A stretch of DNA of 64,000 nucleotides from a virus, in the IMG/VR virus record IMGVR_UViG_3300037524_002067, positions 64,001 through 128,000 of that record. One strand, given 5' to 3'. The notes under the pieces are model-generated. The model saw nothing but the letters and a program-made list of their open reading frames with translations, did no database searches and was not told where the DNA came from. Made by a program: the position numbers and the translations under genes. Of this stretch, positions 10,685 to 13,498 are shown piece by piece. Each line of letters opens with the position of its first letter. The stretch's first letter is position 1.

Positions 10685-10769
10685 CACGTCGAAGAGGATT
10701 CGAACCCCTGTGAGACCTAAGTCTGCTGGTTTTGGAGACCAGTGCTATCAACCACTCTGCCATCGACGT
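10685..10769 (-). tRNA. tRNA-Trp(CCA) with a long, class II-type variable arm
   Basis: ACGTCGA/TCGACGT acceptor, CTGGT-CT CCA AA-ACCAG, variable arm AGAC-TTAG-GTCT, AGGGG-TTCGAAT-CCTCT, G73. Confidence 0.85.
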
Positions 10770-10847
10770 ATATAGATGTTTAAAATTACGGATTAGAATT
10801 TTTAAAGCCTCGGTCTTGTCGCCGCTTCCTTAATCTATCACATCTTG

Positions 10848-11071
10848 TTACCAGTACGGGAATCGAACCCGCATAATTGTTGTGCACGTGCTTTGGAAAA
10901 CTCGCTTCCTTACTTTGTCGTAGACATTTCAGTGCATCCGTAACCATGCAGCACGTTACTCACACCATATTTGCTCAGACTATGCCTTCAACGCTTTCTG
11001 TAGCAAGTCAACAATTTCTCTTTCGAGAACCCTTCGTTTTAGGTTTGTCTTTCCATTTAGACGAACTGGTA
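10848..11071 (-). ncRNA. 224-nt tRNA-like RNA (acceptor, D and T arms with a large structured insertion)
   Basis: TACCAGT/ACTGGTA acceptor, GTCT-AAATGGAA-AGAC D arm, GCGGG-TTCGATT-CCCGT T arm; internal stems AATTGTTG/CAACAATT and ACGTGCT/AGCACGT. Confidence 0.65.
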
Positions 11072-11077
11072 ATTTTG

Positions 11078-11150
11078 CACGAGTGGCAGGCATCGAACCC
11101 GCAACCTTTGGTTTTGGAGACCACTACTCTACCAATTGAGCTACACTCGT
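11078..11150 (-). tRNA. tRNA-Trp(CCA), canonical
   Basis: ACGAGTG/CACTCGT acceptor, loop CT CCA AA, G73. Confidence 0.9.
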
Positions 11151-11153
11151 GTA

Positions 11154-11747
11154 TTATTTGTTTTTGCTTTTTAAATATCTTGTTTTTCTACTTGAGTTTT
11201 TGTTTTTAGACTTATATGTATCAAGTTGAGAATCACAATTAGGACAAACCAGCCTCAAATTTATTCTAAAATTATTGTAAGCGTTACCATCTATATGATC
11301 GAGAATAAAAACCAATCTAATGTTATTCCACTCGTTTTTTATACCACACACAGCGCATTTACAATTCTGTTCTAATAAAATGTGCTTTTTAATAAAGCTC
11401 ATATTCCTATCATGACAATACTCGTGTTGGTTATTTAAATATTTGGCATATATTTCTTTAGATTGATTTTCATAATAACAATCACGACTGCAAAAAGTTT
11501 GATCTGGGTGGGTGGTTAACTTTATATTTTTATCACACTCCTTACACTTAATTATTTTAGCTGTTCCTTTATTAGCTGGAACAAAATTATCTTTAAAATT
11601 CGCTCTTTTAGGAAGAATTATACCTAATTTTTTAGCCGCTTTTTTTATAGTTTCATCAGTAACTCCATACATTTTACCTATCTTTATATAAGATAGTTTT
11701 TTATCAAAAATTAATGTTGACAACTCTTCTTTGTTATAATTTTTCAT
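11154..11747 (-). CDS. HNH endonuclease inserted in the tRNA array
   Basis: CAVCG, LDHIDGN..NN...NLRLVCPNCDSQ; N-terminal HTH and Zn finger. Confidence 0.8.
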   Translation of the reverse strand: MKNYNKEELSTLIFDKKLSYIKIGKMYGVTDETIKKAAKKLGIILPKRANFKDNFVPANKGTAKIIKCKECDKNIKLTTHPDQTFCSRDCYYENQSKEIYAKYLNNQHEYCHDRNMSFIKKHILLEQNCKCAVCGIKNEWNNIRLVFILDHIDGNAYNNFRINLRLVCPNCDSQLDTYKSKNKNSSRKTRYLKSKNK

Positions 11748-11844
11748 ATTCTTTTATTTAAATATAAAGAAAAATAACTCCAATTACTAATCAATTTAAA
11801 AAATAATCTATTAGTAATTTAAATAACTATTTCAAAGAACTTTG

Positions 11845-11921
11845 TGATCGCCACGGGAGTCGAACCCGTATGTGTCCAATTACTCTTTCAACTGCTTAGA
11901 AGGCAGAGGAGTTATGCGACC
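11845..11921 (-). tRNA. Non-canonical D-armless tRNA-Arg(TCT)
   Basis: GGTCGC/GCGATC acceptor, 7-nt connector in place of the D arm, CTGC-CT TCT AA-GCAG, long variable region, ACGGG-TTCGACT-CCCGT. Confidence 0.65.
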
Positions 11922-11928
11922 TTTTTTG

Positions 11929-12005
11929 TGACCACCACGGGATTCGAACCCATATGCATCCACTTACTCTTTCAACGGTTTAGGAAACCGAGGAGATATG
12001 CGGCC
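11929..12005 (-). tRNA. Non-canonical D-armless tRNA-Arg(CCT)
   Basis: Paralogue of 11845-11921 with covarying anticodon stem CGGT-TT CCT AA-ACCG. Confidence 0.65.
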
Positions 12006-12009
12006 ATTT

Positions 12010-12085
12010 GTGATTGATAATTGTGGAATCGAACCACTGAGTTTTTACACTCCGACACCTTGAGCTCAAGTCAATTTACCAATCA
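12010..12085 (-). ncRNA. Degenerate tRNA-like element with no assignable anticodon
   Basis: TGATTGGTAA/TTATCAATCA closing stem and GTGG-TTCGATT-CCAC T arm. Confidence 0.4.
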
Positions 12086-12090
12086 CTTTG

Positions 12091-12162
12091 TAGTCCCACT
12101 AGGAATCGAACCTAGATAATTGGTTTAGAAAACCAAGGCTTTATCCATTAAGCTATGGGACC
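12091..12162 (-). tRNA. tRNA-Arg(TCT), canonical
   Basis: GGTCCCA/TGGGACT acceptor, TTGGT-TT TCT AA-ACCAA. Confidence 0.9.
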
Positions 12163-12240
12163 AAATTCTAATTAGTTAAAGTGGTTTTATGATGCCAATT
12201 AGTAATGCATCCTCATAACGGATTACCACAATCCTATTCG

Positions 12241-12322
12241 TGTTGAGGGGAGGATTCGAACCACCAGATGATCAGTACGTACTTAATCACCTTTTCCAAA
12301 CGCATGCTTATTTGACCTCAAC
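12241..12322 (-). pseudogene. tRNA-like or pseudo-tRNA, possibly derived from Ser(GGA)
   Basis: GTTGAGG/CCTCAAC acceptor, T arm and long variable hairpin; D and anticodon stems degenerate around TTGGAAA. Confidence 0.45.
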
Positions 12323-12326
12323 ATTG

Positions 12327-12417
12327 CAGAAGTGACGAGATTCGAACTCGTGCGCCGATTTTCACCGACCTATCAACTTTCCAGGCTGACCCCTTTCATC
12401 CACTTGGGTACACTTCT
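12327..12417 (-). tRNA. tRNA-Ser(GGA)
   Basis: AGAAGTG/CACTTCT acceptor, TCAGC-CT GGA AA-GTTGA, long variable arm, G73. Confidence 0.9.
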
Positions 12418-12425
12418 ATGTTTTG

Positions 12426-12514
12426 CGGAGGCGGTGAGGATCGAACTCACGCAGCGGATTTCTCCGCCCTAACGGTTTAGCAAACCGTCCCCTTCACCAC
12501 TTGGGTACGCCTCC
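12426..12514 (-). tRNA. tRNA-Ser(GCT)
   Basis: GGAGGCG/CGCCTCC acceptor, ACGGT-TT GCT AA-ACCGT, long variable arm. Confidence 0.9.
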
Positions 12515-12519
12515 AATTG

Positions 12520-12608
12520 AGGAGAGCATAGGATTCGAACCTAATGCGGGTCTTCCCCGCACCCTTTGTTTAGCAAACAAGGACTAGCCCAAGCCAGCAT
12601 TACTCTCC
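12520..12608 (-). tRNA. 8/4 (tRNA-Sec-like scaffold) tRNA-Ser(GCT)
   Basis: 8-bp acceptor GGAGAGTA/TGCTCTCC, 4-bp T stem TAGG/CCTA, 6-bp D stem with 4-nt loop, long variable arm. Confidence 0.75.
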
Positions 12609-12688
12609 AATTTTATCTCCGCATTTTTGCGGAGATTACGATGTTTATTCACCGCACAAAAATAAAAAACAATACGTCAAAAAACTTT

Positions 12689-12774
12689 TGGCGGAAGATA
12701 TAGGAATCGAACCCTGCCCTTGCGGACCGCCCCATGCTTCAAACATGGTTGACCACCGATGGTCGCTACCTTCC
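12689..12774 (-). tRNA. 8/4 (selC-like scaffold) tRNA-Ser(TGA) with encoded CCA
   Basis: GGAAGGTA/TATCTTCC-G-CCA, GACCA-TCGG-TGGTC D arm, CCATG-TT TGA AG-CATGG. Confidence 0.7.
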
Positions 12775-12779
12775 AGTTG

Positions 12780-12864
12780 AGGAGAGTGTGAGATTCGAAC
12801 TCACGGACCCCGAAGGGCCTCCAGTTTTCAAGACTGGTGCAATAGACCACTCTGCCAACTCTCC
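12780..12864 (-). tRNA. tRNA-Ser(TGA), canonical
   Basis: GGAGAGT/ACTCTCC acceptor, CCAGT-CT TGA AA-ACTGG, long variable arm. Confidence 0.9.
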
Positions 12865-12869
12865 TTATT

Positions 12870-13250
12870 TTAATTCAATTTTGCCCAAGGCTCATAACTC
12901 AAAACAAAAGCTGTTCCCCAACCATTAGAACCTTGTCCGCCCAACTCACCCTTCTCACGCATATCTGCAAAAATTTCTTTCATACATTTTTTTACATTGA
13001 AATTATCGCAAAGTATTTGAAAATCATTGTGGCCAAATTTAAACCCATCAAACTCAATCACAATTTCTTTTGGTTTTTCTTTTTCATCTTCAATCAAAAG
13101 ATAAGTTGTTCCCTGCAAATCGTACATCTTAGAAAAAAGCTTTAAACCATTTTCTTTCATGATAGTGATTTGTTCATCAGTGTATTCAGTTACACCTTTG
13201 CACCATTCAATCTTGTTGATCATTCCTTGTATTAATTCTTCTTTGTTCAT
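12870..13250 (-). CDS. Hypothetical protein, first gene after the attenuator
   Basis: 126-aa ORF. Confidence 0.6.
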   Translation of the reverse strand: MNKEELIQGMINKIEWCKGVTEYTDEQITIMKENGLKLFSKMYDLQGTTYLLIEDEKEKPKEIVIEFDGFKFGHNDFQILCDNFNVKKCMKEIFADMREKGELGGQGSNGWGTAFVLSYEPWAKLN

Positions 13251-13271
13251 TTTTCTTAATTTACTTTAAAT

Positions 13272-13303
13272 AAAAAACCCTGGCTTTTTGTGAGCCAGGG
13301 TTT
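13272..13303 (-). terminator. Intrinsic terminator of the attenuator
   Basis: AAACCCTGGCT-CACAAAA-AGCCAGGGTTT followed by TTTATTT. Confidence 0.85.
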
Positions 13304-13341
13304 AGAGTCCGTTGAATTAAGGGTTAAATATCTTTCTTCAG

Positions 13342-13431
13342 TTATGACAATAAATGGCCTGGCTCGGTTGCTCTACTTGAGCTCGAACTCCTTCTCCAAG
13401 ACCATGATCTATTGTTTGTAACTGTTTTCAT
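13342..13431 (-). promoter_or_regulatory. Attenuator leader peptide MKTVTNNRSWSWRRSSSSSRATEPGHLLS
   Basis: 13 consecutive Ser/Arg/Trp codons; GAGCCAGG (13358-13365) is complementary to the terminator 5' arm CCTGGCTC. Confidence 0.8.
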
Positions 13432-13469
13432 TTGTTATAAATATGCTAAAAATTCTTTTTTCTGAAATT

Positions 13470-13498
13470 TTATACGTACAAAGATAGAATAAGTTTCA
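13470..13498 (-). promoter_or_regulatory. ECF-type promoter TGAAAC-N16-CGTATAA driving the leader/tRNA operon
   Basis: Motif match about 40 nt upstream of the leader ATG. Confidence 0.75.

Follow-up and report, generated by a model that had tools for sequence, protein, structure and literature searches.

Ribosome-mediated attenuators of the trpL, hisL, pheL, thrL, ilvGMEDA, and pheST type combine a short leader open reading frame (ORF), tandem control codons, and an RNA able to fold into either an antiterminator or a terminator; the thrL and ilvGMEDA leaders are multivalent, and synthetase genes occur in attenuated operons of the pheST type. Here, we describe a locus of this architecture ahead of a serine (Ser), arginine (Arg), and tryptophan (Trp) tRNA array in the genome of a large uncultured phage. 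It lies in a 64,000-nt stretch of DNA, hereafter the window, corresponding to bases 64001–128000 of the 154,343-base virus record IMGVR_UViG_3300037524_002067 (G+C 32%; the record is cut at one end at least). We put at roughly 0.85 the probability that this locus is a trp/his-type attenuator acting as a codon-specific feedback on tRNA supply.

T-box riboswitches also read the status of a tRNA through codon–anticodon matching and switch a terminator, but they bind the tRNA directly, use a single specifier codon, and need no translation. In amino-acid operon attenuators, the control codons end just before the antiterminator strand (PMC1183508), as they do here. Unlike in those operons, the regulated product is mainly tRNA genes, so that the output is the sensed molecule; the system is encoded by a phage, each leader covers three to eleven isotypes, the choice of synonymous codons follows the array anticodons, and the whole tRNA set is divided into regulons. 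The nearest case among tRNA arrays, the Anabaena trn L-array, likewise consists of supernumerary tRNA genes close to an HNH gene and stays silent until translation is impaired, but it is controlled at initiation, without codon specificity, by TrcR, an RHH repressor of the kind that binds a direct-repeat operator over the promoter (PMC8421152, PMC10272220), and attenuation or a terminator is never mentioned in PMC8421152. Anticodon cleavage is a widespread defense (PMC7824862) from which phage tRNAs can rescue infection: the tRNA-Lys of T5 replaces the host tRNA destroyed by PARIS (PMC11464382, where the word attenuation is absent), and its tRNA-Tyr replaces a host tRNA in the case of retron Ec78/Eco7 (bioRxiv 10.1101/2023.03.15.532788). 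These accounts describe neither sensing nor regulated expression of the phage tRNAs. The closest GenBank relatives of the tryptophanyl-tRNA synthetase (TrpRS) encoded behind the array (69–72%) belong to huge phages of the Mahaphage clade (Al-Shayeb et al. 2020; LR756501-3), which we compared by TrpRS and leader units; PMC7162821 lists tRNAs and synthetases, predicts Bacteroidetes as hosts of its largest genomes, and leaves attenuation unmentioned. A literature search, with most subscription journals outside its coverage, found no published tRNA array under leader-peptide attenuation, in line with the original prediction on this DNA, which knew of none.

A Probable Leader Peptide Attenuator Precedes the Array

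The locus places a leader ORF between a promoter and the regulated genes, tandem codons cognate to the array in that ORF, and a terminator after it (table 1). The original prediction, made from the sequence alone, had announced a 29-codon leader with 13 consecutive Ser/Arg/Trp codons, using five different Ser codons, only AGR codons for Arg, and TGG; codon reading bears this out, with AGA or AGG as Arg codons and TGG present twice. At the codon frequencies of the genome, 13 such codons in a row have a chance probability of about 1e-12, and this control block is the longest Ser/Arg/Trp run, in any frame, in the 154-kb contig. For every anticodon of the array, the block contains at least one cognate codon, and 13/13 block codons are readable by array tRNAs according to sequence and wobble rules. 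An identical copy of the leader exists in L025, and orthologues were found in L002, L029/L030, and L061/L068.

Table 1. Features of the locus and of related leader units. Positions refer to the window unless a contig or locus is named.
Feature	Coordinates	Strand	Remarks
Promoter, Bacteroidota-type	13479..13509	-	TTG 13509-13507, 20-nt spacer, TAnnTTTG 13486-13479
Leader ORF, 29 aa	13342..13431	-	A-rich stretch before ATG
Control block, 13 consecutive Ser/Arg/Trp codons	13372..13410	-	leader codons 8-20
Segment 1	13397..13405	-	possible 1:2 protector helix (-9.0 kcal/mol) with segment 2; in silico
Segment 2, antiterminator strand	13358..13365	-	8 bp with segment 3, -15.3 kcal/mol
Intrinsic terminator	13271..13303	-	11-bp stem (13303-13275), 3:4 helix -18.5 kcal/mol as duplex, plus U-tract
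126-aa ORF, first gene past terminator	12870..13250	-	no assigned function; no Pfam/PHROG match
tRNA-Ser(TGA)	12779..12864	-	default ARAGORN and Rfam
tRNA-Ser(TGA), divergent	12689..12774	-	relaxed ARAGORN; kept in L029
tRNA-Ser(GCT), divergent	12519..12608	-	relaxed ARAGORN
tRNA-Ser(GCT)	12425..12514	-	default ARAGORN and Rfam
tRNA-Ser(GGA)	12326..12417	-	default ARAGORN and Rfam
tRNA-like RNA	12236..12322	-	acceptor stem and T-arm, no assignable anticodon; homologue in L002
tRNA-Arg(TCT)	12090..12162	-	default ARAGORN and Rfam
tRNA-like RNA	12010..12085	-	no assignable anticodon; homologue in L029
Arg(CCT) tRNA-like element, non-canonical	11926..12003	-	relaxed ARAGORN; no normal D-arm
Arg(TCT) tRNA-like element, non-canonical	11843..11920	-	found by hand; layout as in Arg(CCT) element
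HNH endonuclease gene within array	11154..11747	-	PHROG HNH matches, E 2.5e-19
tRNA-Trp(CCA), canonical	11077..11150	-	default ARAGORN and Rfam
226-nt structured RNA	10846..11071	-	tRNA-like acceptor stem, D-arm, T-arm, large internal insertion; z -2.7
tRNA-Trp(CCA), long variable arm	10684..10769	-	default ARAGORN and Rfam; abuts TrpRS start
TrpRS, short, 245 aa	9945..10682	-	class I motifs; Pfam tRNA-synt_1b E 1e-38
Leader unit	contig 54984		leader rich in Pro, Ala, Met, Gly, Tyr, Asp; tRNAs of those isotypes follow
Leader unit	contig 28884		leader rich in Asn, His, Thr, Lys, Ile; tRNAs of those isotypes follow
Leader unit	contig 23516		Leu/Cys block; Leu(TAA) and three Cys tRNAs follow
Leader unit	contig 1515		Leu/Phe/Val/Arg leader; Phe tRNAs, then contig end
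G032 accessory cluster	L212:10380-12250		10 tRNAs, then RNase H-like, cREC, metallophosphoesterase, exonuclease genes
G027 accessory cluster	L213:10320-11800		Asn/Leu/His tRNAs, then SPFH gene; RtcB ~9 kb away

The promoter had to be reassigned. A promoter was originally proposed at 13470–13498; a sigma-70 scan lists none there and shows no excess over shuffled sequences. The region 13509–13479 fits instead the Bacteroidota consensus, with transcription predicted to start near 13472. This pattern and shared extra motifs are found at the head of all five leader units of this genome and of a unit combining a PTH2-like gene with a suppressor tRNA (see below). Immediately 5' of the promoter lies an ArdC-N anti-restriction-like gene (window 14864–13566, minus strand).

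Segment 2 is perfectly complementary, over 8 nt, to a segment 3 (13299–13292) located inside the 5' arm of the terminator (fold z = -3.9). The original prediction was therefore right in pairing a segment behind the codon run with the 5' arm of a strong terminator. As they share segment 3, antiterminator and terminator are mutually exclusive, and in L002 and L029 one position is changed jointly in segments 2, 3, and 4, a compensatory G-C to A-U replacement. We folded the switch at equilibrium with a masked ribosome, assuming a footprint of −15 to +12. On nascent RNA, with the 3' arm of the terminator still unmade, the antiterminator has a probability (P) of ~1 for a ribosome at codons 2–18, 0.37 at codon 19, and 0 from codon 22. 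In the same simulations, segment 1 lies under a ribosome stalled in the control block; the 1:2 helix reaches a P of 0.75 in the full-length fold but is outcompeted by 2:3 on nascent RNA. With the assumed footprint, the antiterminator is left free by a ribosome stalled on the control codons and is blocked by one that keeps moving. In this model, the matched codon block ends exactly where folding alone places the start of antiterminator blocking by a stalled ribosome. The alternative structures proposed for this region thus hold in silico, and the leader ORF, tandem cognate codons, terminator, mutually exclusive antiterminator, and spacing of trpL, hisL, and thrL are all present. The locus is not an amino-acid biosynthesis attenuator in the narrow sense, as Pfam and PHROG reveal no biosynthetic enzyme among the regulated genes.

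Leader Codons Match the Arrays in the Same Genome and in Relatives

A scan of the contig for terminators with small ORFs upstream revealed four further promoter-leader-terminator units, all with a Bacteroidota-type promoter. The five units cover all tRNA clusters, and the tRNA set of this phage is split into at least five such regulons. Among the 120 possible pairings of the five leaders with the five arrays, the actual assignment ranks best. In the fifth leader (contig 1515), Arg is encoded by CGY codons only, and the array is cut off by the contig end. As an out-of-sample check, the relative G001 carries an identical fifth leader, behind which lie Phe, Val, Leu, and Arg(ACG) tRNAs. One lineage therefore has AGR codons ahead of AGR-reading tRNAs and CGY codons ahead of a CGN-reading tRNA.

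For relatives, we collected TrpRS-anchored loci and further regions of related jumbo phages. Leaders were chosen blind to the array: a terminator before the first tRNA, a small ORF ending 12–65 nt upstream of it, and the start codon with the most A-rich upstream sequence. This yielded 55 distinct units, and only 2 array heads had a terminator and no leader. Leader residues matched their own array with an excess of 0.218, compared with 0.003 ± 0.015 in permutations, none of which reached the observed value (0/100,000); reducing the set to a single unit for each of 26 clusters (coarse single linkage) left the result unchanged. When an isotype is present in the array, its residue occurs in the leader for Trp in 20/20, for His in 15/15, and for Phe in 15/15 cases. 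Lys runs precede Lys arrays, Gln runs precede Gln arrays, alternating Ser-Leu precedes a Ser-Leu array, and blocks of His, Phe, Trp, and Lys precede such arrays. The peptide sequences are unrelated between units; their composition tracks the array. The same leader units are present in L019 and L020, loci of the huge phages of Al-Shayeb et al.

The agreement reaches down to synonymous codons. Before TCT/CCT arrays, the leader Arg codons are AGR in 11/13 cases, and before NCG arrays they are CGN in 23/26 (Fisher p 1.4e-5); in the present genome, AGR is used 4.5 times more than CGN. Among the matched codons, 275/334 are readable by array anticodons, compared with 233 ± 6 after synonymous resampling, and 239/269 anticodons have a cognate leader codon, compared with 220 ± 4. 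The covariation of leader codons with downstream anticodons expected from the original prediction is thus found within the genome and across relatives, for amino acids and for codons. It is also confined in space. For the 55 units, the codon match in excess of expectation amounts to 0.47 within the 11 codons that lead up to the switch point given by folding, and to 0.00 starting two codons beyond it; at a finer scale, it is 0.43–0.65 in the eight codons up to the switch codon and at most 0.09 directly after. Pairing with the terminator arm drops from 0.76 to 0.39 when arms are swapped between units, the own arm being better in 51/54, and in a duplex test 28/55 units rank in the top 5%. When viral contigs were searched by DNA pattern for orthologues of the leader, chance matches came up and, besides these, L002 only.

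A Model for the Switch and Its Alternatives

From this anatomy, the leader–array matching, the switch geometry, and the conservation, we infer promoter use, leader translation, switching, and feedback as follows. Host RNA polymerase would initiate at the Bacteroidota-type promoter and a host ribosome would translate the leader. With rapid decoding of the Ser, AGR-Arg, and Trp codons, the ribosome would advance over segment 2, the 3:4 terminator would form, and the array would stay mostly off. If the tRNA for any control codon were cleaved, degraded, uncharged, or outnumbered, the ribosome would stall in codons 8–20, segment 2 could capture the emerging 5' arm of the terminator, and the tRNA array and TrpRS gene would be transcribed. 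The new tRNAs would then accelerate the reading of that leader and thereby act as negative feedback on their own supply. Split regulons may in this way let the phage replace only the isotypes that run short.

Several points weigh against this model. All support is computational: the start of transcription and the translation of the leader are predicted, as are termination and induction; transcription–translation coupling in the presumed host is an assumption. Once the whole terminator is transcribed, the terminator wins at equilibrium for every ribosome position (P 0.67–0.87), and the switch must therefore be kinetic. Nascent RNA without a ribosome also favors the antiterminator (0.93), which bears on the default state of an untranslated leader, and the switch position depends on the assumed footprint. 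Covariation by pair counting on the four orthologues is suggestive, being not significant alone (28/500 shuffles). The 55 units are related, many of them close kin, so that the counts are of non-independent events, and the relaxed tRNA calls hold some wrong anticodons.

The same attenuator might have been selected as a classical sensor of amino-acid starvation, reading uncharged tRNA without any link to tRNA destruction. Uncharged and missing tRNAs are indistinguishable for the mechanism, and the TrpRS gene in the operon keeps a role in charging alive. We nevertheless consider this origin unlikely: no biosynthetic gene is recognized downstream, extra tRNA supplies no amino acid, and the leaders sample the isoacceptors of the array, AGR and CGN codons switching with the anticodons. 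In starvation sensors, by contrast, it is the use of one particular synonymous codon that heightens sensitivity (PMC1183508). The output being tRNA, the lack of a downstream biosynthetic gene, and the tracking of single isoacceptors lead us to favor tRNA loss over starvation; compared with starvation or general depletion, we rate it about as likely as not that the selective signal is the loss of host tRNA in infected cells, caused for instance by anticodon nucleases.

The amino-acid and codon matching and the separate leaders per isotype block are left unexplained if the leader is only a general translation sensor or timer and the terminator gives way to a phage antiterminator protein or to the overall failure of translation late in infection. 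General slowing would also open the switch, as the antiterminator folds without a ribosome or with a stall at any early codon, and the extra motifs shared by the promoters could bind a phage factor; even so, we regard such a timer as improbable. Still harder to sustain is a leader acting otherwise, by T-box-like direct binding of tRNA or through a functional peptide. A T-box relies on codon–anticodon matching as well, but here numerous control codons follow one another in the frame of a start codon, and the peptides are unrelated between units with a composition that follows the array. The T-box assignment, which calls for a stem I with specifier loop and a T-box antiterminator bulge, was rejected: Rfam finds only tRNAs in the window and no T-box, and none of its leader families scores there above the gathering threshold. 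AT-rich DNA commonly contains small ORFs and hairpins, and the ordinary terminator of an upstream gene next to a random small ORF could look similar. Such a coincidence is already refuted by the permutations and the conservation, in addition to the codon run of ~1e-12 and the arm-swap result, and has a negligible probability.

Why phages possess tRNA genes, and when these are used, is a long-standing question, and these switches imply an inducible, isotype-specific response and not a constitutive supplement to codon usage. Classical attenuation would be extended to tRNA genes with direct feedback, which simple reporters can test, and phenotypes of tRNA deletions may stay invisible unless decoding is stressed. 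A broader proposal, to which we give slightly less than even chances, is that large phages possess a modular surveillance of tRNA-targeting immunity, in which each replacement block senses the loss of its own host isoacceptors through its leader and is induced on demand, and that related switches guard bacterial accessory tRNA clusters. If this is true, the leaders represent a genome-readable list of the tRNAs attacked by hosts. The switches could also be used as compact biosensors of tRNA-cleaving defense systems.

Bacterial Chromosomes

In 31 Bacteroidota genomes, 4/44 tRNA cluster heads have a terminator and a small ORF, versus 342/404 phage tRNAs under a leader unit, the two counts using different units. 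Two of the four cases are accessory clusters whose leaders contain every array isotype (G032 and G027, table 1). Homologues exist in three more genomes; the accessory clusters have one or two tandem leader-terminator units and lie near RNA-processing genes (also L216-L224). The composition match is weaker than in phages (p 0.008 to 0.10 in four genomes, none in the fifth), and we take these weaker look-alikes as a lead only. No matching leader was seen ahead of host trpS among 12 genes.

The Array and Its Genes

Default ARAGORN and Rfam identify six tRNAs in the array (Ser TGA, GCT, GGA; Arg TCT; Trp CCA twice), and a relaxed ARAGORN score brings in a second Ser TGA, a second Ser GCT, and Arg CCT. 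The anticodon list given originally, Ser(TGA x2, GCT x2, GGA), Arg(TCT x2, CCT), and Trp(CCA x2), proved right, the last two Arg elements being atypical. In these elements (12003–11843, minus strand), the anticodon arm stands right behind the acceptor strand and is followed by a D-loop-like motif. They have homologues in L002, L030, and L065, among which the anticodon stem of the Arg(TCT) element shows a compensatory change. The 126-aa ORF is missing from the L002 unit, where the tRNA starts 20 nt past the terminator. The HNH gene is a recent mobile insertion, because it is absent from the near-identical L025.

A homologue of the 226-nt structured RNA is present in L041, within a Ser/Arg array. 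This RNA (window 11071–10846, minus strand) and those at contig 350–220 and 112–16 are long, have tRNA-like ends, and contain large insertions of several small stem-loops; they could be decoys or unfamiliar non-coding RNAs. A canonical tRNA is paired with a tRNA with a long variable arm for Trp (window 11150–10684) and for Asp, Ala, Asn, Cys, Ile, and His (contig 20108–54707).

TrpRS was found behind the array as announced. No biosynthetic enzyme gene was recognized downstream with Pfam and PHROG; the genes there are tRNAs, the HNH gene, TrpRS, and unassigned ORFs. The start codon of TrpRS is at most 3 bases from the discriminator of the second tRNA-Trp (window 10684–10682), so that tRNA processing would leave a nearly leaderless mRNA. 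The protein is about 90 residues shorter than Bacteroidota (host) TrpRS, to which it is at most 40% identical, and it was therefore rejected as a host marker; a search of genome contigs found no close relative. It is 64–93% identical to jumbo-phage homologues and closest to these, including those of 642- and 735-kb genomes whose predicted hosts are Bacteroidetes (PMC7162821).

Source Genome and Neighboring Genes

The window encodes DNA polymerase A, DnaB, ribonucleotide reductase, and UvrD. Default-score ARAGORN reports 37 tRNAs on the contig, every one on the minus strand and clustered by amino acid. Near-identical DNA is present in wetland and freshwater samples, and the public runs holding it are wetland and freshwater DNA. 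Public RNA runs contain small shares of it as contigs, from which strand, level, and 3' ends are not readable; one wetland RNA run includes a 151-nt exact piece (window 13032–13182), too little to use. The large subunit of ribonucleotide reductase (window 43343–39681, minus strand) carries an intein with a LAGLIDADG domain.

Genome-wide recoding by reassignment of TAG or TGA is not needed: with table 11, coding reaches 82% and all three stops are used, in the portion of the output giving these numbers. The PTH2-like gene (window 18392–18000, minus strand) has an in-frame TAG at codon 3 and a Bacteroidota-type promoter, and is followed by a tRNA with a CTA anticodon (17552–17480, minus strand). 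The amber codon is retained at codon 3 or 4 in L150, L151, L152, L153, and L154 (73–86% identity) and in L094 (36%), and the suppressor tRNA is also present in L150, L151, L153, and L094. The PTH2-like gene is likely amber-gated. Short tRNA-like fragments flank the suppressor tRNA (window 17650–17380, minus strand).

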